A stretch of DNA of 64,000 bases from NCBI GenBank assembly GCA_016715795.1, contig JADJXP010000001.1:261705-325704 (forward strand), in the 5' to 3' direction. The stretch comes from Chloracidobacterium sp. (lineage in GTDB: Bacteria > Acidobacteriota > Blastocatellia > Pyrinomonadales > Pyrinomonadaceae). Shown here piece by piece: positions 564 through 44,413 of the stretch (the first letter of the stretch is position 1; each line of letters begins with the position of its first letter). A program made the translations under genes and the position numbers. The notes beneath the pieces were generated by a model, which saw only the letters and a list, made by a program, of their open reading frames with translations, was not told the origin of the DNA and searched no databases.

Positions 564-1280
564 ATGAAACAATGGTCATATTCTAAGAACATCGTCGCGA
601 TGCTTTCGCTGCTTTTGTTGTGCGGCGTCGGCATCGTTTCTGCCCAAAAACCTGTGATCAAGAGAAAGCCGGTCGTACGGAAATCAGTGGCAAAACCGGT
701 CACACCCGTTTACTCGGTCGATACAGGCACAGTAATACGCGTACGCATCGAAAAAACGATCAGCTCAAAGACGGCGAAGGTCGGTAATACATTTTTTGTG
801 ACGGTTACGGAACCGGTCTATGCGAACAACGGAGTGGTCGTCATCCCGACCGGCAGCCGGATCACGGGCCGCGTCGACGCTGTCAAGCCCGCCGCGAAAG
901 GCGGCAAACCGGGCGAGATCGATGCCAGCTTTATCTCCGTAAAGCTGCCAAACGGCCGTGTCCGCACCATCAATGGCTCACTGACCGAACTCACCGAAGG
1001 CAAGTCTTCGAGCGATGACGAGGGAACCGTGAGCGGCGACAAGATGAAGCACCGCAAGATCATCTTTATCGGCAGCGGTGCGGCCGGTGGTGCTGTGCTC
1101 GGTGCAATGGTCGGCGGCGGGAAAGCTACTGCGATCGGAGCAGCGATCGGCGCCGGCGCCGGATTTCTCGGCGAAAGACTCTTAAAGGGCCCCGAAGCCG
1201 AGGTCAAATCAGGCACCGAATTCGGCGTCTACCTCAATCAACCGGTCTCGCTTCCCAGATTCGTTGAGGTTATGCCATAG
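564..1280 (+). CDS. Secreted protein with C-terminal glycine-zipper segment, function unknown
   Basis: N-terminal signal peptide (MLSLLLLCGVGIVSAQ). The C-terminus is Gly/Ala-rich and GxxxG-like (GSGAAGGAVLGAMVGGGKATAIGAAIGAGAGFLG). A terminator hairpin follows the gene. Confidence 0.7.
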   Translation: MKQWSYSKNIVAMLSLLLLCGVGIVSAQKPVIKRKPVVRKSVAKPVTPVYSVDTGTVIRVRIEKTISSKTAKVGNTFFVTVTEPVYANNGVVVIPTGSRITGRVDAVKPAAKGGKPGEIDASFISVKLPNGRVRTINGSLTELTEGKSSSDDEGTVSGDKMKHRKIIFIGSGAAGGAVLGAMVGGGKATAIGAAIGAGAGFLGERLLKGPEAEVKSGTEFGVYLNQPVSLPRFVEVMP

Positions 1281-1304
1281 TAAGTAACCTTGGTTCAAAC
1301 AAAA

Positions 1305-1333
1305 GGGCGGGGACATCGATCCCCGCCCTTTCT
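1305..1333 (+). terminator. Rho-independent terminator
   Basis: GGGCGGGGA (1305-1313) pairs with TCCCCGCCC (1320-1328) and is followed by TTTCT. It lies directly after the stop at 1280. Confidence 0.7.
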
Positions 1334-1633: not shown

Positions 1634-2641
1634 GTGAAACCAAACACCAGGGAGATGACCGTGAACCTTCAAAAAACCGTGACCTTCCGTTTCGTATTGA
1701 TCTGCCTTTCGCTGCTTTGTTTTCCCGCCATATTGGCGGCACAGAATCCGAAGGGCAACCCGACACTTATTATCGACAAGGCAAAGCCCCGCATGGCGAC
1801 CGCCGACGGCAATAATCTCTATTGCGCCGGCTATATCCAGACGAGCGCCATCAGTACTGTGAACAGTATTGTCGGCGGCCAACATGAGGCCGATGGATAC
1901 TTCTATGCCGAGAATGATTTTGTCTATATAAATATGGGCCGAGACAAGGGTGTCAGCGTTGGCGATATGTTCGCCGTCGTCCGCCCGCGCGGTTCTGTCA
2001 AGAGCGCGTGGACCGATAAAGGGAACATCGGCTATTGGGTCCAGGAACTCGGGGCTCTCGAGGTAGTGAATGTCAAAGACACCGTATCGGTCGCCCGCGT
2101 CGCCTCGTCATGCGATAATTTCCTACTTGGCGATCTCGTCCAGCTTATCGAGAAGCGAGCCAGTCCGAAGCACGATCCTCAACCAGTATTGAATCTCTGG
2201 GCCGATCCGTCGGGTAAGGCAACCGGTCGCATCCTGATGTCTCGCGACGGTGCCGAGATGCTCTCGCGCGACTTTATCGCCTACGTCGATCTCGGGGCCG
2301 AAGACAGCGTCGAGGTCGGCAACAAGCTCACGATCTTTCGCCCGCTCGACGACGGTAACCTGATGAAACGGACGCAGAAGGAATATCCGACCGGCCGCGA
2401 TTACGGCTTCCAAAGCGACGAATACAAGGGCGGCAAGTTCTCAAATCAGTCGTCACGAAAGACCGGCGAACTGGCCCAAGGGAGCCACATTACCACCCGC
2501 GAAGCCAAGCAGGGCCGCCCGCCGCTCCGAAAGATCGTTGGCGAGGCTGTGGTGCTGAATGTTAAAGAACGAACAGCGACCGTCGTCATCACGCGCACGG
2601 GACAGGAGATCCACACCGGCGATTGGGTCGAGCTGCAGTAG
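1634..2641 (+). CDS. Exported protein of unknown function
   Basis: Long ORF with a signal-peptide-like N-terminus (FVLICLSLLCFPAILAAQ). The true start may be the internal ATG at 1655 or the GTG at 1661, which follow a GGGAG sequence. I recognise no family. Confidence 0.6.
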   Translation: MKPNTREMTVNLQKTVTFRFVLICLSLLCFPAILAAQNPKGNPTLIIDKAKPRMATADGNNLYCAGYIQTSAISTVNSIVGGQHEADGYFYAENDFVYINMGRDKGVSVGDMFAVVRPRGSVKSAWTDKGNIGYWVQELGALEVVNVKDTVSVARVASSCDNFLLGDLVQLIEKRASPKHDPQPVLNLWADPSGKATGRILMSRDGAEMLSRDFIAYVDLGAEDSVEVGNKLTIFRPLDDGNLMKRTQKEYPTGRDYGFQSDEYKGGKFSNQSSRKTGELAQGSHITTREAKQGRPPLRKIVGEAVVLNVKERTATVVITRTGQEIHTGDWVELQ

Positions 2642-2666
2642 AAAAGGACGCTAGAGTTCAGCAAAG

Positions 2667-2703
2667 GAAATGTCACTGGGGCGACGGTGACATTTCTTTT
2701 TTT
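2667..2703 (+). terminator. Rho-independent terminator overlapping the 3' end of the convergent gene
   Basis: GAAATGTCAC (2667-2676) pairs with GTGACATTTC (2687-2696), followed by a T7 run. Confidence 0.6.
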
Positions 2704-3638
2704 ATCTGGACAATGAACGAACGGACCGCTGTTGCCTCAGCCGAATCGGGGAAGATGCGGAGGAACTCCTCATAGTTTGCGATGGCTTCCTTCCAACGCT
2801 CTTGCCGCTCGTATATCAGGCCCAGCAGTTGGTAAATAACGATCGTATCCGGCGCTCCGGAGAGCTGTTTGAGTGACTGCTTGAGGTTCTTCGCGGAATC
2901 CGTGTAAGCTGCATCCTCAAGCTCAAAATCACCGCCGCCGCCGTAGCCCTCGGCCTTTTCCTTGTAGAGCAGCCCAAGCCCGGCGTATGCCTCCGGCTGA
3001 AATCCCCGGCCCTCGGTGATCGCACGTTTGAACGACGCGATGGCCTTTTCCTCTTCGCCGCCTTCCTTGTAGATGCGGCCAAGAACTGCCGAGGCCTCGG
3101 CATATCCGGGACGGTACTTGCGGGCCTGAGCAATTGCCTTTTGGGCCTCATCGAGGTCGCCCATATCGGCAAGGGTGCGGGCAAGGGCAAGGTATGCCTC
3201 GGGATAAGCGGGCCTCAGGCGGATCGCTTTGCGATAGGCGTCCTCGGCCTTTTCGCGATCGACGAGGGTCAGCCGTTCTGCCTCCTGGAAAGCCAATTCG
3301 GCGTCGTCGGTCGTCTTTACAAGCCCAATCGGCAGATCACCCCGCCTCGCCGCCGTTATCGGCTGTGTTCTCTCCTTAAAGCCGTCAGCCCGCACACGCA
3401 AGCTGTGAGCCCCCGTTGCGATCGTTTTGATATCGAGCCGGCCCGATGCGTCTGTCTTTCCAAATCGAACGCCGTCAACCCAAACAACCGCATTCGGCTC
3501 GGTAATGACCCTGATCGAGCGGAATTGTACCGACTGGCCGTGCGCATACGAACAAGCCGCAGCGATGAGACCGATCATCAATAAGTTGCGTAGCATATTC
3601 CGTTTTGACGGCCGCCGGGATCTATTAGTTGTGCGCAT
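2673..3638 (-). CDS. TPR-repeat protein with N-terminal PEGA-like beta-sandwich domain
   Basis: Signal/TM segment (LLMIGLIAAACSYAHG). PEGA-like stretch (IRVITEPNAVVWVDGVRFGKTDASGRLDI...HSLRVRADGFKE). Several TPR-like A-x-x-x-Y-x-x-A-I-x-L-x-P repeats follow. Confidence 0.75.
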   Translation of the reverse strand: MRTTNRSRRPSKRNMLRNLLMIGLIAAACSYAHGQSVQFRSIRVITEPNAVVWVDGVRFGKTDASGRLDIKTIATGAHSLRVRADGFKERTQPITAARRGDLPIGLVKTTDDAELAFQEAERLTLVDREKAEDAYRKAIRLRPAYPEAYLALARTLADMGDLDEAQKAIAQARKYRPGYAEASAVLGRIYKEGGEEEKAIASFKRAITEGRGFQPEAYAGLGLLYKEKAEGYGGGGDFELEDAAYTDSAKNLKQSLKQLSGAPDTIVIYQLLGLIYERQERWKEAIANYEEFLRIFPDSAEATAVRSFIVQIKKEMSPSPQ

Positions 3639-4930: not shown

Positions 4931-5007
4931 GGCTGGGTAGCTCAGCTGGTTAGAGCGCGGGATTCATAACCCCGAGGTCGGGAGTTCAAGTCTCCCCCCC
5001 GCCACCA
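4931..5007 (+). tRNA. tRNA with CAU anticodon (Met, or Ile2 if lysidine-modified)
   Basis: 77-nt cloverleaf: GGCTGGG TA GCTC AGCTGGTTA GAGC G CGGGA TTCATAA CCCCG AGGTC GGGAG TTCAAGT CTCCC CCCCGCC A CCA. There is one acceptor-stem mismatch (T4:C69). Met and Ile2 cannot be told apart by eye. Confidence 0.8.
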
Positions 5008-5444
5008 CCGTTCACTTAATCCGTAGCTTCTAGTTCTTCCTCAAGCCGTTGCCGTTCGTAGAGATCGGCGTATTCGCCGTCTGCGGCAAGCAACTCGTCG
5101 TGGGTGCCGCGTTCGATGATGCGGCCATCGGCGAGGACGCAGATCAGGTCGGCGTCCTTGATGGTCGAGACGCGATGCGAGACGATGAGCGTCGTGCGGC
5201 CCGATCGAACGTCGCGCAGATTGTGAAGGATCTTTTCCTCGGTGTAGGTGTCGACGGCGCTTAGCGAATCGTCAAGGATCAATATCCGCGGATCGCGCAT
5301 CACCGCACGAGCGATGGCCGTTCGCTGTTTCTGCCCGCCGGACAATGTAATGCCGCGCTCGCCTACGAGTTGTTCATAACCGTCGGGGAAGGTCTCGATA
5401 TCGTCCGCGAGGCCGGCGATCGCCGCGGCGAACGCGACCGTCAT

Positions 5445-5547
5445 GTCAGTGCCACCTGCGGTAGCGGGTGGTTGAGTATCCGTTTTGCTCACCATCATGT
5501 TACTTCCACTCTGCGTTAAACCACCCGCTACCGCGGGTGGTACTGAC
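5445..5547. repeat. Nested palindromic element inside the ABC nucleotide-binding-domain coding sequence
   Basis: The 29-nt arms gtcagtgccacctgcggtagcgggtggtt (5445-5473) and aaccacccgctaccgcgggtggtactgac (5519-5547) are inverted repeats with 2 mismatches. Each arm contains its own hairpin, CCACC(C/T)GC-N4-GCGGGTGG. Confidence 0.85.
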
Positions 5548-5829
5548 ACGCCGAACGCTATATTGTTCGCCAGTGTATCGCTAAACAAGAAAGTCTCCTG
5601 TGGGACAAAGCCGATCGCGCGTCTCAATTGTGCCAGCGGATATTCGCGCACGCTCCGGCCGTCGATCAATACGCTGCCATCAGGAGCGTCCATCATCCGC
5701 GGGATGAGTGACACAAGCGTCGATTTGCCGCTTCCGGTCTTGCCGACGAACGCCACGGTCCGGCCGGCCGGAATGACGAGGTCGATATCCTTTAGAACAT
5801 CTCTTGAGCCAATTGCAGTTCGGAAGGGT

Positions 5830-5875
5830 GGCTTGCCCCCGCCGCCTTGTTGTTCCGAAAGGGCGGGGGCAAGCC
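5830..5875. repeat. Perfect 14-bp-stem palindrome inside the ABC nucleotide-binding-domain coding sequence
   Basis: ggcttgcccccgcc (5830-5843) and ggcgggggcaagcc (5862-5875) are exact reverse complements separated by an 18-nt loop. Confidence 0.85.
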
Positions 5876-6964
5876 CGCCTTCCTGACCACCATTCGACGA
5901 CGCACCGTGGTTTCCATTCGCAGCATATGAAAATGTCAGATCGCGAAACTCGACCGAGCCGCTGATCGGCCGCTGTTCGATCACGCCTTCGTCGTCGCGG
6001 ATCGCCGGTACGGCCTCGAGTATCGCATTGAATCGCTTAAGCGACGCCGTTCCGCGCTGATAAAGGTTGACGACATAGCCGAGCGCGATCAGATACCAGA
6101 TCATTCGCTGCAGATAAAGGATGAACGCCGTAAAGTCGCCCGCCGTGATCTCGGCGCGAACCGCCATCGGCACACCGACGGCAACGATGATGACAAAGCC
6201 GAGTCCGATGAAGAAGAACAGCATCGGCCGCATAGCGGCGGCATATTTTACGAGCCGCAGGTTTTGCGTTGCATATTCGCGGTTCAGCACCTGAAAACGC
6301 TCGATCTCGGCATCTTCCTGAGCGTAGGCACGCACGACGCGCACGCCGGTCAGATTCTCTTGCGCACGGGCGGTGATATCGGAGAAAAATTCCTGTATCT
6401 TCTCAAAGCGGGTGTGTATCTGGCCGCCGAGATACTTGACCGTAAGCGAGACCAGCGGCGCGGGATCAGCATCAGCAGCGTGAGCTTTGTTGAGATGCTG
6501 AGCAATATCGGCAGCGAGATGCACAGGGCGAAGATCGCCTGAAAGCTGTAAAGGATCATCGGGCCGACGATCTGGCGAACGGCGGCCAGGTCATTTGTTG
6601 CCCGTGCCATCAGGTCGCCGACGCGGTTCTGGCGGAAATATTCGAGTGGTTGATCGACAAGCGCCGCGTAAAAATCCTGCCGCATGTCGAATTCGATATG
6701 CCGCGACGTGTTGATCAGCAGCCGACGCTGCAGGAACAGAAAGACGCCGCTTCCAAGATTGATCGCCAGGATCACCAGCGGATAGTAAACGACCTTGTCC
6801 CAAGTCACGCCTGCGTGCAGATCGTCCACCGCCCGCCCGACCATGTAGGGCACGAACAGCCCGAACGACATCGACGCCAGAATGCAGCCGATGCCGACAA
6901 GGACGGTACCCTTGTAGGGTTTGAAATAACGGGCAAATTTGCGTAGCTGCTCCATTAAAAGGTC

Positions 6965-7034
6965 AACCACATAGAGACATAGAACACATCGGAAATGCTT
7001 TTATGTTCTATGTGCTCTATGTTCCTATGTGGTT
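6965..7034. terminator. Word-repeat hairpin downstream of the thioesterase gene
   Basis: aaccacatagagacatagaacacat (6965-6989) pairs imperfectly with atgttctatgtgctctatgttcctatgtggtt (7003-7034). Both arms are built from degenerate ~7-nt words (ATAGAAC / ATGTTCT). Confidence 0.55.
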
Positions 7035-7456
7035 CAGATCCTCGTGTAGGTAGAGATCGCAGTCGCGATCAGCTTGCCTTCCTCGTTATGCACCTCGGCC
7101 GAGACGGTAAAGATGCGTTTTCCGGCGCGGACGACGCGAGCCGTGCAGGCAATGGTCCCGCTCACGTGCGGCCGCACATAATGGACGGTAAGGTCGATCG
7201 TCGTCGTGGCCTCATCAATGCCGAGCCGCGTGCGCACGGCGAATGCCATTGCCGTATCGATCAGCGTCGCCGTCACGCCGCCGTGCAGCACGCCGTTCGC
7301 CTGTTTGAGGTCGTCGCGCATGTCGATGGCGACGGTGGCCTCGTCGGGCCGAAGCTCCAACAGCCGCATCCCTATCATCTGCGAGAGCGGCATGCTGCTG
7401 AGGGCCTTTTCCGCCAGCGAGCGCAGTTCGGGGCTTATCTCTTTCATGATCGTCAT
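7034..7456 (-). CDS. PaaI-family hotdog-fold thioesterase
   Basis: 140 aa, with the motif NGVLHGGVTATLIDTAMAFAV typical of PaaI/YbgC-like thioesterases. Its start overlaps the stop of the upstream gene by 4 nt. Confidence 0.8.
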   Translation of the reverse strand: MTIMKEISPELRSLAEKALSSMPLSQMIGMRLLELRPDEATVAIDMRDDLKQANGVLHGGVTATLIDTAMAFAVRTRLGIDEATTTIDLTVHYVRPHVSGTIACTARVVRAGKRIFTVSAEVHNEEGKLIATAISTYTRI

Positions 7457-8861: not shown

Positions 8862-10324
8862 ACGCGGCCGAGCTGCGCGACCTCGTTGCTGAGCGGGCCG
8901 AATGGCTGCTGGTTCGCGAGACGGCGGGCACATTCCCGCTGCTAAGCGGTGAGATCGAAGTGGCCGAAGGGGACGGCAAGGCTCATTTTGGCTTTATTGA
9001 CGAGGGCGGCTTTCACTCGTGGCGGCTGAATGGTTTCGAACTCGATGGCAACGAAGTCTTGGTCGATGTTGCCGGCTCATTCAATCGCAACCGCGAAACC
9101 ATAAGGCTGATCCCACGCACGGCGGCGTCAGAGATCACAGCAGAGATCGAGATCGCGAGGCTGAAAAGGGCAAACGAGATCGCCGAACTGATCCGAACCA
9201 ATTACGCAACGGCCAATCTGCGTCGCGTCTCGCTCAATGTCGAAAACGGGCGCCTCGCTCAGATCGAACTCGACCTCGACAACACACACATGGCGGCAGT
9301 CGCCGATGTAACCGCGACACTGACGCCTGAGAGCATGCTGACTGCTGCCATTACATGGGCGGACAAGCTCTCGCTTCGTAAAAAAAGGCCGATCAACGAC
9401 CTCTGGATCATCTGCGAGAAACGCCGCTCGCGGCTCGCACAAAAACTGCATGCACTTTTGACCGAACGATGGCGGGCAAAGCTCACGATCTTCGAGATCG
9501 ATCGCCGAACCGAACCCGCACGGATAAAGGAATTACCAAAACGCCGCATTCGCGACCTTTGGCGTGAAAAGCCGCAGAAACTCATCTTGCCCGCCCGCTT
9601 CGAGCCGAGCAAGACTTCGCAAAGGATCATCAACCTCGTCCCCGACTCCATCGACATCGTTTACGCCCGTAACGGCGAGACGCTCAGGTTCAAAGGGCTG
9701 CCGTTCGCTCGTGTCCGGACGATCATGGGCGTCGAAAAAGCTTGGTTCGGCGTTGGCCGGGCGATGCGGGCCTTGAACAATGAAGACTGGGACGATCTTG
9801 TTACCTTTGTCGACGGGTTGCGTTTGATCCGCTCATTCGACAGCCCAAACAAGCGCCACGAATTATATCGCACGGCCGCCGAGGCATGGCTGGAATCGAT
9901 CCTTCGCTACAACATCAGATTGCTTGACGCAAACCTGATCCTGTCACCGATCTACAACCAATTCCGCTTCTCAAACGACAAGATCGACCTGCTCGCGATG
10001 CGTCGTGACGGCCGGCTAGTGATCATCGAGCTAAAAACACAGCCCGACCGCGAGATGGTCTTCCAATCGATCGATTACTGGCGAAAGATCGAATTGCAGC
10101 GCCGCCGCGGCATCCTTGCAGCCGCCGACCTATTTGACGGGCGCGAGATCGCCGACCGGCCGACGATCGTCTATCTGGCGGCACCTGCGTGGAGTTTTCA
10201 CCGCGATTTTGAGTATTTCGCTCGATGCGTCTCGCCCGACATCGAACTGTGGCGCTTCGACCTGCACCAGGATTGGCGAAACGATATTCGCGTCGTCGCC
10301 CGGCACAGCGTTGCCGATGGTTGA
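8855..10324 (+). CDS. Hypothetical protein with C-terminal PD-(D/E)xK (NucS/DUF91-like) nuclease motif
   Basis: The track ORF starts at 8582, but that part overlaps the SGNH gene. The likely start is the ATG at 8855, which overlaps the SGNH stop (ATGGTGA). The C-terminus has EAWLESIL...KIDLLAMRRDGRLVIIELKTQPDREMVFQSIDYW, resembling the D...ExK core and following Q..Y helix of NucS-type nucleases. Confidence 0.55.
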   Translation: MVNAAELRDLVAERAEWLLVRETAGTFPLLSGEIEVAEGDGKAHFGFIDEGGFHSWRLNGFELDGNEVLVDVAGSFNRNRETIRLIPRTAASEITAEIEIARLKRANEIAELIRTNYATANLRRVSLNVENGRLAQIELDLDNTHMAAVADVTATLTPESMLTAAITWADKLSLRKKRPINDLWIICEKRRSRLAQKLHALLTERWRAKLTIFEIDRRTEPARIKELPKRRIRDLWREKPQKLILPARFEPSKTSQRIINLVPDSIDIVYARNGETLRFKGLPFARVRTIMGVEKAWFGVGRAMRALNNEDWDDLVTFVDGLRLIRSFDSPNKRHELYRTAAEAWLESILRYNIRLLDANLILSPIYNQFRFSNDKIDLLAMRRDGRLVIIELKTQPDREMVFQSIDYWRKIELQRRRGILAAADLFDGREIADRPTIVYLAAPAWSFHRDFEYFARCVSPDIELWRFDLHQDWRNDIRVVARHSVADG

Positions 10325-17183: not shown

Positions 17184-17200
17184 CCAAATCACCAGGCAAA

Positions 17201-17301
17201 TTAGCCGCGGATTACGCGGATAAAACGGATCAGGACAAATAAGAGAAATGCCTTGCTAATATCATTTAATATCCGCGTTCATCCTTTTGATCCGCGGCTA
17301 A
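17201..17301. terminator. Word-repeat hairpin between convergent clpC and 17315..17701
   Basis: ttagccgcggat... (17201-17233) faces ...atccgcggctaa (17271-17301). The outer 12 nt are a perfect inverted repeat. The arms are made of GGAT/CGCGGAT-type words. Confidence 0.5.
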
Positions 17302-17314
17302 ATTTTTCTTCTCC

Positions 17315-18207: not shown

Positions 18208-18268
18208 CTCCAACCGCTTCCGCGTCCTGAGCCGACTGGTCGTGCTCAGGACGCGGAAGCGGTTGGAG
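18208..18268 (-). terminator. Perfect 25-bp hairpin downstream of the methyltransferase gene
   Basis: ctccaaccgcttccgcgtcctgagc (18208-18232) and gctcaggacgcggaagcggttggag (18244-18268) are exact reverse complements. Confidence 0.65.
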
Positions 18269-41458: not shown

Positions 41459-43099
41459 CGCGCTCGCGTAAACCGAGGCGTCGATCTCGCTGAAGATGTT
41501 GTCTCGTGATTCGATCTCGGTAAGAAGTTCATCATCAACCTGACCTGAGTCCAGCATCTTCGCCAGCATATCGAACCGCTGAATGTGCGATTGGAATCGG
41601 CGTGACGAGTATTGCACGGTGGTGCCTTGATATATCTGGAATGCCCAGTCCGACGATTGGGCGAGCAGGAGTTCGCGGGCGGCCTGATTCAAAAGCCGAG
41701 TTCCAGATTCCAAGTCCCAGATTCCAGATTCTTTGTTCGAAATTTGAAATCTGGAATCTGAAATTTGAAATTGCTTCGCGAGTTCGGTCATTCGCCGTTC
41801 CGCGTCGTGCTGATACGGGTACATCCACGAATTTCCTTCGTTTATCCAAACTTTGTAATAGCCGCTCTCGCCCCAGCTTGAGGCGGTCGGGCGTTGTTCC
41901 TGGATCGATAGGCCGGCGTCGAGAAAATCGCCGGGCGTGACGCACGCGATCTCGTCCTGGTCGAAGTGCATCTTCTTGAAGAAGAAGTCGAGAAACTGTG
42001 GCCCCTCATACCACCAATGGCCGTAAAGCTCTGCATCATAGGGGCTTATGACTAGCGGCGGATGGCCTTCAAACGTCTCACGTAGCTGGTGTGCCTGCTT
42101 GATGCGCTCATTGATAAAGTTCGATGCGTTTTCAGCCGCCTTGTCGCGCGCAAGCGCGGGAATGTACGGCTCCTTGCGGTTTTGCGGCACGTCGCGGCCT
42201 GTGATGCGGTGGTATTTCAGGCCGAGGTGGCGGCGTTCGCCGGACGAGTGCAGGTGCGGTTTGACGTATTCGTAATCCGCGTCCCAGCCGATGTCACGGT
42301 AGAACTCGCGATACAGGGCGTTGCCCGGATAGCCGATCTCGGCCGACCAGACCTGCTGGCTCGTCTCGACGTCGCGGGCAAATACGGCGACGCCGTTCGG
42401 AGTGACAACCGGAGCGTGAACGCCATAACGCGGCCTCGGATCGCCGTAAAGGATCGCGTGCGTGTCGGAGATGAAGTATTCGATGCCGGCATCTTTTAAC
42501 AGGTCCTCGACGCCCGGCTCGTACGCACACTCGGCGAGCCAGATGCCGCGGGGCTGGCGGCCGAAGTGCTTTTTGTAATTCGTGACCGCGATCTCGACCT
42601 GCGCACGCCGCGATTCGCGGGTCGAGATGAGCGGCAAAAAGCCGTGCGTCGCGCAGCAGGTGATGACCTCGACGACGCCCTCGTCCTGCAGTTCGCGGAA
42701 TGCGTTGACGAGATTGCGTTTGTAGCGGTTGTTCCACAGCTCGAGCGAGGCGGTCAGGTTATCGACGTACATCTTTGCGACGTCGTGAAAGTTGGCGGCC
42801 TCGTTTCGCGTGCGGTGTTCCTCTTTGTGGGCGAGATCGATGAGGTTTTCGAGGTGGCGTGTGTAACGTTCCTGCAGCAGCGGGTCGGCGAGCATTTCAC
42901 ACAGCGGCGGCGAGACGTTCATGGCAAGCCGCGGCGACGCACCGGCCTCGTGCAGCGATTGAAAAATGAAAATTAGCGGAAGATAGACCTCGGTTATCGC
43001 CTCGTAGAGCCAGTCTTCCTCAAGGAATTCGGGATATTCGGGATGCCGGACAAACGGCAGATGGGCGTGGAGGATGAGGCTGAAATAACCGAGCGGCAT
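41453..43099 (-). CDS. GH57-family glycoside hydrolase (1,4-alpha-glucan branching enzyme type, with DUF1957-like C-terminus)
   Basis: The N-terminus [35 protein letters not shown] is characteristic of GH57 branching enzymes. Confidence 0.85.
41696..41775. repeat. Heptad-word palindrome inside the GH57 coding sequence
   Basis: cagattccagatt (41718-41730) is the exact reverse complement of aatctggaatctg (41748-41760). The arms are tandem 7-mers, (CCAGATT)n and (TGAAATY)n. Translated, the element gives ...[25 protein letters not shown]... Confidence 0.85.
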
Positions 43100-43115
43100 T
43101 GCAGGTATATTAAAA

Positions 43116-43175
43116 CAGGATGGCGAGGATAGACAGGATAAACTATTAAATCCTGTCTATCCTGTCTAATCTGTT
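43116..43175. terminator. Word-repeat hairpin downstream of the DUF4912 gene
   Basis: acaggatggcgaggatagacaggat (43116-43140) faces atcctgtctatcctgtctaatctgt (43151-43175). The inner 13 nt pair perfectly. The arms are tandem 9-nt words (AGGATAGAC / ATCCTGTCT). Confidence 0.55.
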
Positions 43176-43183
43176 TGAAGAAA

Positions 43184-44413
43184 CTAGCCGACCGAGTGTG
43201 AACTGACCGGATTATATCGTGCCGACGTTACTCGTCGCGTTTTCAGCGTTTTGGGGAAATGCACGAGGCTCACGCCGTAGACCGCGGCTGAGAATTCCTC
43301 CTCGGTCCATTCGGCCTCGTCGATGTCGAAATGTTCCTTAAGTGCGACCTGCGCTTTGGCAGCTGTCAGCTTACCAACATTTGCCTGTAGAATCGCGAAT
43401 AACGCAGGGCCGACGCGCCATCGAATCTCCTCCAGCGTAAAGCCGCTTGCGAGGGCAAGCATCGCGTAGCGAATGTCATCGGCGGCGATGCCGTCGAGGG
43501 CATATTCACTCGTGCCGATGAATTTTGAGAACGCGATCTGCGAAGCGTTATCGGCCGTGATCGGATCGTCACCTGCCATAGCAACATCAAAGGCGTCGCG
43601 CGAAAATCCCGACACATCAAGCACCTCGGCAAATTTCGTGGCCGAAACTGTCCACCGCGAATCTGTAGAAGGCCGCGGACTTGGGCTGCGGCGCGGCGTC
43701 GCGATCGAGTTGGAGTACATGACTCTAAAATAAGGTCGATTCACCGCATAGAACCCGATCTCGGCCCGGTATTCGCCATCAGGCTCGACTGCGAACCACC
43801 AGTTACCCGTGCTGTCACAAGGGTTGATCTCTTCAGTCTCGCGCTTGAGGTCAACCAGTTTTACAACCAGGGCGTAACTGCCGAGATCATCACCGAATAT
43901 TCGTTTCAGCTGATGCCATGGGTTGTCCTTCAGCGACCAATAAAAATAGAGCCGCGTTGGCGACTGCATTAGCAGCCGTGCACGATTCTCGCGATCAAGT
44001 TCAGGAAGGGAAACGTCTGAAAGGGCCTTAAACGCCGGTGAAAGTTCAACTTCCGGTTCCACCGAAACAAGCTCGGATGTGAGTTCGAGATCAGCCTTTG
44101 CTCGCTTCGCCGCTTTCTTCCGGACCGGTTTTGTACTGGCCATCTTAGGGCCATCCGCAGTCGATTGGCCCGTCCCTTCCGCCTTTTTCCTCCTCGACGC
44201 TTTTTTTACCTGCGATGTCGCAACGGCAACCTCTGCGAAGGCGTCTGCCGAAGGCTCAGTCGTCTTCTTCGAGGAGCGAGTGTTCCGCTTCCTAACGACT
44301 TTCGGCGGCATCGCTGATCCGACAACACGTGGATCGACAACGTCTGCGAACGGATCGGTTACGGTCGTTCTCTGCTTAGGTACCTTCCTTTTTGTAACTC
44401 CCTCTTTTGCCAC
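43184..44413 (-). CDS. DUF4912-like protein with basic, disordered N-terminus
   Basis: Core sequence LLMQSPTRLYFYWSLKDNPWHQLKRIFGDD...WWFAVEPDGEYRAEIGFY resembles DUF4912. It lies immediately upstream of the GH57 gene on the same strand. Confidence 0.55.
   Translation of the reverse strand: MAKEGVTKRKVPKQRTTVTDPFADVVDPRVVGSAMPPKVVRKRNTRSSKKTTEPSADAFAEVAVATSQVKKASRRKKAEGTGQSTADGPKMASTKPVRKKAAKRAKADLELTSELVSVEPEVELSPAFKALSDVSLPELDRENRARLLMQSPTRLYFYWSLKDNPWHQLKRIFGDDLGSYALVVKLVDLKRETEEINPCDSTGNWWFAVEPDGEYRAEIGFYAVNRPYFRVMYSNSIATPRRSPSPRPSTDSRWTVSATKFAEVLDVSGFSRDAFDVAMAGDDPITADNASQIAFSKFIGTSEYALDGIAADDIRYAMLALASGFTLEEIRWRVGPALFAILQANVGKLTAAKAQVALKEHFDIDEAEWTEEEFSAAVYGVSLVHFPKTLKTRRVTSARYNPVSSHSVG

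Follow-up and report, generated by a model that had tools for sequence, protein, structure and literature searches.

An in-frame REP-like hairpin dimer in an ABC exporter gene belongs to a dispersed repeat family of Acidobacteriota associated with a class 3-like Y1 HuH gene

In Rickettsia, palindromic repeats of about 100–150 bp (RPEs) lie in frame in many unrelated housekeeping genes, where they add a peptide and leave the open reading frame intact. Intragenic REPs have also been described, including copies in uvrA and uvrD and dimers encoding 20–30 residues (Di Nocera et al. 2013, PMC3733652); the same study reports REP dimers with variable spacers and gives the tetranucleotide GTAG or CGTC as the canonical REP tag. 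The third related system is class 3 TnpA-Y1 of Acidobacteria and Planctomycetes. According to Quentin et al. 2018 (PMC6006769), its proteins of ~178 aa have the motifs NHVH, a conserved W and Y----Q and show extended N-terminal conservation; the genes are flanked by atypical hairpins with a CnGA foot, of which a single genome can have up to ~600. With all three systems already in the literature, the element described below is not of a new kind. Our literature search found no paper on the Acidobacteriota repeat family to which it belongs.

We analysed a 64-kb stretch of DNA, hereafter the window, in which a 103-nt palindromic element lies within the nucleotide-binding domain (NBD) of an ABC exporter (Table 1). 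The initial annotation had described two 29-nt inverted-repeat arms with 2 mismatches, a hairpin within each arm and a reading frame without stops, and recomputation gave the same picture. The segments 5445–5473 and 5519–5547 are complementary at 27 of 29 positions, and at a setting of 85 % complementarity the inverted repeat grows to 5434–5473 and 5519–5558, 40 nt per arm. Each arm holds its own hairpin with an 8-bp stem, CCACCYGC-N4-GCGGGTGG (5452–5471 and 5521–5540), a pattern that did not occur in any of 100 dinucleotide shuffles of the window. The translation of the downstream exporter ORF stays open through the element, which contributes ~35 extra residues reading PPAVAGG...PPATAGG. The 143-nt region folds with −70.2 kcal/mol as RNA (z = −7.5), the z-score for DNA folding is −7.9, and none of 200 shuffles folds as well. 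An Rfam scan of positions 5000–7100 returned just far sub-threshold microRNA-like hairpin matches, and no known RNA family fits. Readings as an intein, an intron or an integron attC site were set aside, since the element is too small, lacks the corresponding features and is translated in every orthologue.

Table 1. Coordinates of the exporter gene, the palindromic inserts and the loci of the Y1 gene; positions refer to the window or to the locus named in the first column.
Locus	Feature	Position	Strand	Remarks
Window	ABCB/MsbA-type exporter, transmembrane domain + NBD	5016..6970	-	two ORFs: 6350..6970, 5016..6524
Window	missing base in exporter gene	6459..6460	-	CCGC-GCCG in window vs CCGCTGCCG, CCGATGCCG, CCGTTGCCG in orthologues
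Window	REP-like dimer: two inverted hairpin arms + interior	5445..5547	.	103 nt; read on minus strand
Window	arm 1 of dimer	5445..5471	+	tag GTCAGTG, then hairpin CCACCTGC-GGTA-GCGGGTGG
Window	interior of dimer	5472..5520	.	49 nt; unconserved among family members and among distant orthologues
Window	arm 2 of dimer, inverted copy	5521..5547	+	CCACCCGC-TACC-GCGGGTGG, then TACTGAC
Window	second in-frame palindromic insert, different family, loop site 1	5811..5894	.	33-nt arms, 79 % complementary
L126	insert at loop site 2			GAGACGCGGAGACGCAGAG-type palindrome
L127	insert at loop site 2			nested-hairpin CCCCTCCTTACGAAGGAGGGG type, 26-nt perfect arms
L127	insert at loop site 1			CCACAGAGAACACAGA-type palindrome
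L039	Y1 gene	1828-2313		direct flanking: arm A 1680, arm B 1790 before the gene; arm A 2315... after it
L054	Y1 gene			flanked by arms; array downstream
L075	Y1 gene			flanked by diverged arms
L129, L130, L131	Y1 gene			A arm ~20-50 nt upstream; B arm or dimer starting ≤~30 nt downstream
L032	dimer enclosing 29-aa N-terminal remnant of Y1 gene	173-372
L024	Y1 gene copy	821-1318		internal stop, no adjacent arm

The host gene has the NBD motifs in its translation (Walker A, Q-loop, LSGGQ, Walker B and the H-loop SHR), and its orthologues carry PF00664 (ABC_membrane) and PF00005 (ABC_tran). The best solved-structure matches are ABCB4, ABCB1 and MsbA. The protein is 100 % identical to an NCBI entry of 383 aa, which comes from a 1.05-Mb contig of a MAG with the label Chloracidobacterium sp.; the close relatives all come from Acidobacteriota of the Pyrinomonadaceae/Blastocatellia type, and the closest locus fetched (L001/L002) has about 85 % nucleotide identity to the window. 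The in-frame insertion into the exporter stands as first annotated, but the picture of the gene itself had to be amended: it is read on the minus strand, and further upstream a 1-nt deletion, judged against three orthologues, splits it by a frameshift. As the rest of the gene looks strongly constrained, the frameshift is either a sequencing error or the mark of a very recent pseudogene. Another palindrome, of the CATAGAGACATAGAACACAT type with 32-nt arms (81 % complementary), lies at 6965–7034, where it overlaps the exporter start codon (6968–6970) and continues into the intergenic spacer that precedes the neighbouring gene. A relationship to the CCACAGAGAACACAGA-type inserts, which are read as TENTE...SVxSV in orthologues, is possible.

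Solved NBDs of the ABCB type (ABCB4, ABCB1, MsbA) align on both sides of the insert and have 9 residues in its place, compared with 36 in the window, which bears out the earlier remark that the connection at this point is normally short. The insert probably lies in a tolerant surface loop, a placement based on the general architecture of ABC domains and on the gap in the solved homologues. An AlphaFold2 model of the NBD built from 53 orthologues was poor (mean pLDDT 55, pTM 0.35) and adds nothing to this placement; both inserts of the domain are its lowest-confidence stretches (pLDDT 27–33).

We aligned 21 orthologues with 72–88 % identity and found the domain almost invariant apart from two loops, one after FRDLxFxY (site 1) and one after NIAFG (site 2). 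The latter holds the 103-nt element, in agreement with its annotated position behind the conserved NIAFG. The limits of site 2 could be placed in 105 of the 120 closest orthologues, and in these it was never empty, with 12–55 extra residues; at least 63 of the 120 have an insert of the PPAxAGG...PPAxAGG type. Site 1, delimited in 88 of the 120, is empty in 45 and holds recognisable palindrome-type peptides in the rest. At the DNA level the same arms were found in the orthologues L001/L002, L003 and L004/L005, and L004 has this element type at site 1 as well. As to whether homologues carry a comparable segment without palindromic DNA, a question raised in the initial annotation, the distant solved homologues lack the segment, and those close orthologues that carry it have the same palindromic DNA. 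The occupants of the two loops are diverse (Table 1). The second insert of the window recurs at the same site in L128 (2153–2228), and several of the palindrome types outside the family of the 103-nt element recur in other loci. Taken together, the two loops of this one conserved domain harbour six or more palindrome families. Two orthologues with 88 % nucleotide identity (L135/P0020 and L134/P0072) carry different site-2 elements between identical junctions, GTCGA on one side and AAGATGACC on the other (L135 1799–1880, L134 1802–1892): one is a family-1 element, the other an unrelated palindrome with 35-nt arms. This suggests either that one element took the place of another or that the identical position was hit independently.

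The window, L001 and L003 have the junctions of the site-2 element in common (GG-GT before GTCAG and ATGA after CTGAC) as well as its length of 103 nt, and could be compared position by position. In the flanking coding sequence, codon positions 1 and 2 show an identity of 0.89–0.94 and third positions one of 0.48–0.59. Within the arms, 16–18 of the 18 third positions are identical, whereas the 49-nt interior retains an identity of just 0.43–0.45 when the window or L001 is compared with L003. The conservation of the arms exceeds synonymous expectation. As arm third positions are kept while about half of the flanking ones have changed, the arms are maintained at the nucleic-acid level, with selection, conversion from other copies and re-insertion as the possible causes.

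Pattern and inverted-repeat searches found no further arm copy within the 64-kb window. As for uniqueness of the arm, which the initial annotation had named as a point against its reading, in related genomes the arm is a dispersed multi-copy repeat. Scanning a sample with one genome per species for the exact arm CCACCYGCGGTAGCRGGTGG, we obtained at least 120 stretches, and among the matches listed all record titles refer to Acidobacteriota MAGs (Pyrinomonadaceae, Blastocatellia and similar labels). Several arm loci can lie on one contig, as the matches listed include three on CAVTYF010000001.1, and four DATMVD01 contigs carry arms. Viral contigs gave 2 family matches in 2.9 million, and we thus discarded the idea of a phage-borne family. 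A fuzzy search allowing up to 4 mismatches recovered 261 arms, forming 83 inverted dimers and 95 single arms. The logo of 79 dimers has sharp ends, GTCAG(A/T)A-CCACCYGCGGTAGCGGGTGG ... CCACCCGCTACCGCRGGTGG-T(T/A)CTGAC, which coincide with the ends of the element in the window, and outside the terminal GTCAG and CTGAC conservation is absent. The family arm of 27 nt consists of the 7-nt tag GTCAG(A/T)A and the hairpin CCACCYGC-GGTA-GCGGGTGG, with an 8-bp stem and a 4-nt loop; a conserved T·G wobble in the stem makes the two strands unequal. The stem is paired in 96.4 % of cells and covaries, with 35 double-sided changes compared with 11.1 in shuffles (0 of 500 shuffles reach 35), while slid controls stay near zero. 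Among the compensatory changes, A-U to G-C at stem position 3 was seen most often.

The interior of the family elements is variable in sequence and length, the span from GTCAG to CTGAC being 66–253 nt. In an 89-nt subfamily the interior is palindromic and partly conserved, and members of the 103-nt type have in common just the arms and TTGAA/TTAAA. No target duplication is visible in the flanks of the 79 dimers, which were compared without an empty-site allele, as none was found; some of these flanks are inverted repeats themselves. The inserted unit cannot be exactly GTCAG..CTGAC, because in 11 of the 17 intragenic dimers the length of this string equals 1 mod 3.

To see how often copies lie inside genes, we used the loci L006–L125 as an unbiased sample and counted a copy as intragenic when it lay in an open frame of ≥200 aa that continued for ≥20 aa on both sides of it. 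This was the case for 17 of 75 dimers and 23 of 91 single arms, while random 100-nt segments are inside open frames in 68 % of cases by the same rule. Genes thus contain about three times fewer copies than random placement would give, although roughly one copy in four (~24 %) is intragenic. The hosts are real proteins, and the inserts sit mostly between Pfam domains or at domain edges. They include a CopA-type P-type ATPase (insert between the YHS and HMBD domains), MetH (between the B12-binding and activation domains), a beta-lactamase/NamZ fusion, an M1 peptidase with three elements, UvrA, UvrD, a radical-SAM/DUF512 protein and a CO-dehydrogenase flavoprotein fusion. Of the 17 intragenic dimers, eleven give PPAVAGG...PPATAGG, and the remainder use other frames without stops (TTCGSGW, HPLPQVV); a TAG is present in one frame of the arm.

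Two arm-rich loci drew our attention to an ORF of 161–170 aa that starts with MWNDTD.PLAY and encodes a Y1 HuH protein. In these two loci it scored 27.7 and 24.8 bits with the Pfam model Y1_Tnp (IS200-like), where the cut-off is 23. With the curated NCBIfam models the scores remained far under the cut-offs, namely 20.5 and 22.9 bits for the RAYT model NF047646 (cut-off 80) and 26–29 bits for IS200 (cut-off 55). Relatives of the protein are labelled 'REP element-mobilizing transposase RayT' by JGI. In an alignment of 27 members, T93-N94-H95-x-H97 and P134-W135 (part of an SPW motif) are invariant and Y156 and Q161, forming Y-x4-Q, nearly so, and the N-terminus is conserved as MWNDTD.PLAY.ITFR.YGTWLHGD.RGS. 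Searches of solved structures with the protein and with the 27-sequence profile gave no meaningful match. Against two other Y1 proteins from L003, the profile lines up in the HuH and Tyr regions with low probability.

Inverted arms surround the Y1 gene in 7 of 8 loci (Table 1), and three of these (L129, L130 and L131) were fetched by protein homology only, as an independent test of the flanking. The dimer in L032 has the appearance of a gene-plus-arms unit shortened by deletion, and the gene in L024 is possibly a decayed copy. Neighbouring genes are common to L039, L129 and L131, which suggests that the Y1 gene is a vertically inherited chromosomal gene. Directly downstream of the gene in L054 there is a tandem array of six arms in the same orientation, ~166 nt apart (2466–3328). 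Two other candidate partners in L003 were rejected. The IS200-like gene at 1553–2005 is flanked by a different repeat family (GTCCCTGAAGGGGAC...), and the flanks of a bona fide RAYT gene at 9363–9959 contain no inverted repeats of ≥14 nt. The latter gene lies directly upstream of the ABC gene and scores 86.8 bits with the NCBIfam model REP_Tyr_transpos (cut-off 80). On both sides of the IS200-like gene (1320–1547 and 2016–2318) we noticed the REP family TGTCCCTGAAGGGGACG..., which also occurs three times in the window, at ~17818, 17901 (+) and 52685 (-).

Judged from its motifs rather than from the published profile, the Y1 gene matches the class 3 group. The protein has NH(V/A)H, the conserved W, Y-x4-Q, a conserved N-terminus and ~170 aa, and the gene is likewise flanked by multi-copy hairpins. 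Their foot, CAGA or CGGA (GTCAGAA/GTCGGAA), fits CnGA in about half of the arms (131 of 276), but nearly half (106) have CAGT or CGGT instead. The accessible part of PMC6006769 does not mention intragenic copies and does not name Pyrinomonadaceae or Blastocatellia. Like REP/REPIN/BIME elements and their RAYTs ('REPtrons'), the family has a short, imperfectly palindromic unit whose 5′ tag is conserved, and with its 27 nt this unit lies within the 20–40 nt of REPs. Also shared are frequent inverted dimers able to form long hairpins, variable spacers, copies in uvrA and uvrD, and a Y1 gene between inverted repeats, here in the same neighbourhood in three genomes. However, its tag is GTCAG(A/T)A and not GTAG or CGTC, with GTAG found inside the loop only, and its Y1 protein is under the curated RAYT cut-off. 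REPs are, as their name says, mostly extragenic, whereas ~24 % of the present family is intragenic. PATEs derived from IS200/IS605 are similar in their subterminal hairpins, their Y1 HuH enzyme and the lack of a visible target duplication, and the L032 dimer with its enzyme-gene remnant is a further likeness. They differ in having distinct left and right ends, while ours are near-perfect inverted copies, and our Y1 gene is found in one conserved chromosomal context (three genomes) and not as a multi-copy insertion sequence. The resemblance to RPEs proposed in the initial annotation holds by behaviour only: about a quarter of the copies lie in frame in unrelated housekeeping genes and leave the ORF open. 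The phylum is another one, a relationship in sequence is not to be expected, the hosts are free-living with large genomes, and a candidate enzyme gene flanked by the repeats is present here.

Enzymes of the IS200/IS605 and RAYT type recognise a hairpin with a short foot on single-stranded DNA, and they cut and rejoin it without duplication. The tag and the 8-bp hairpin with its GGTA loop appear to be of the type recognised by Y1 HuH enzymes of the IS200/RAYT superfamily, and because of this known chemistry the Y1 protein flanked by the arms is the presumable enzyme that mobilises or maintains them, acting on single-stranded DNA. One dimer would have landed in the exporter NBD between the Q-loop/NIAFG stretch and the helix before the LSGGQ signature. 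Its stop-free frame would add a Pro/Ala/Gly-rich peptide, PPAVAGG...PPATAGG, to a probably tolerant surface loop, where the peptide may well be neutral, so that the ORF stayed open and the copy was inherited. Intragenic copies in general would survive only where the peptide meets a tolerant loop or linker and the frame is free of stops. We give a probability of roughly 80 % to the reading that the 103-nt element is a REP-like hairpin dimer of a family tied to a class 3-like Y1 gene, which landed in an ABC NBD loop and was inherited. A more far-reaching proposal, which we regard as tentative and rather doubtful, is that the NBD loops are landing pads from which Y1 HuH enzymes precisely excise and into which they insert hairpin elements, that families were swapped at one junction (P0020/P0072) and that the arms within genes are kept 'fresh' by ongoing enzyme activity or conversion. 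If this were true, enzymes would generate loops that are hypervariable in a lineage-specific manner, within proteins that are highly conserved elsewhere.

The maintenance of the arms at the orthologous site could also mean that the hairpin has been co-opted and is kept for a local role in DNA or mRNA, such as translational pausing between NBD subdomains, a site for RNase III or mRNA stability, or protein binding. This is compatible with a mobile origin. It would explain why 16–18 of 18 third positions are retained in the arms against ~50 % synonymous identity in the flanks while the interior is randomised, and it agrees with the very stable predicted structure and the stem covariation. We nevertheless consider it improbable, since the arms are equally conserved in intergenic copies and in unrelated genes, which is not locus-specific, unrelated palindromes occupy the same site in relatives, and gene conversion or re-insertion accounts for the conservation equally well. 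Even less is to be expected from an explanation in which the segment is an old lineage-specific linker, retained for its PPAVAGG peptide with incidental palindromy of the DNA. Extra residues are indeed found at site 2 in the closest orthologues, at least 63 of 120 of them of the PPAxAGG type. However, identical DNA arms occur in intergenic DNA and around the Y1 gene, third codon positions are conserved, the arms are read in other frames too, and close relatives swap in unrelated palindromes; taken together, this makes such a linker hardly credible.

The dimer-like structure, with a size of 52–239 nt, inverted ends and a variable interior, would also suit an ordinary MITE, derived by deletion from an insertion sequence with a DDE transposase and bearing terminal inverted repeats as well as target-site duplications. 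Three observations make this very unlikely, though slightly less so than the linker: the 79 dimers show no duplicated or conserved flank, the sole gene found between arms is the Y1 HuH gene, of which one dimer holds a remnant, and the ends are hairpins with a conserved asymmetric wobble, like those of IS200/REP systems. As for an artefact of assembly or sequencing, the 1-nt frameshift in the same gene indicates that the MAG may contain errors, but independent assemblies from JGI, NCBI and ENA have the element at this very site, and the chance of an artefact is negligible.

The REP-like family with its Y1 gene extends the behaviour of in-gene repeats to abundant free-living soil Acidobacteria and links it to the little-studied class 3 group of Y1 HuH proteins. 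The repeat family itself is new, as is the large proportion of its copies that lie inside genes in a major soil lineage. It is also new that several palindrome families have repeatedly come to occupy two loops of one conserved domain, and that the arms are conserved within a coding site shared by orthologues. With many orthologous filled sites, a saturated synonymous background and a junction-identical swap, the dataset lends itself to asking whether such elements are tolerated or are maintained or targeted. In practical terms, the inserts inflate and diversify proteins, break assemblies and can mislead the annotation and alignment of Acidobacteriota MAGs.

Several distinct palindrome families are present within the 64-kb window. 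Further hairpin-forming inverted repeats were noticed at 43105–43184, 18208–18268, 17198–17304 and 41707–41771, one of them with perfect 25-nt arms. The segment 18001–24000 has a GC content of ~0.50, compared with 0.55–0.60 elsewhere in the window, and may be a foreign or mobile segment.
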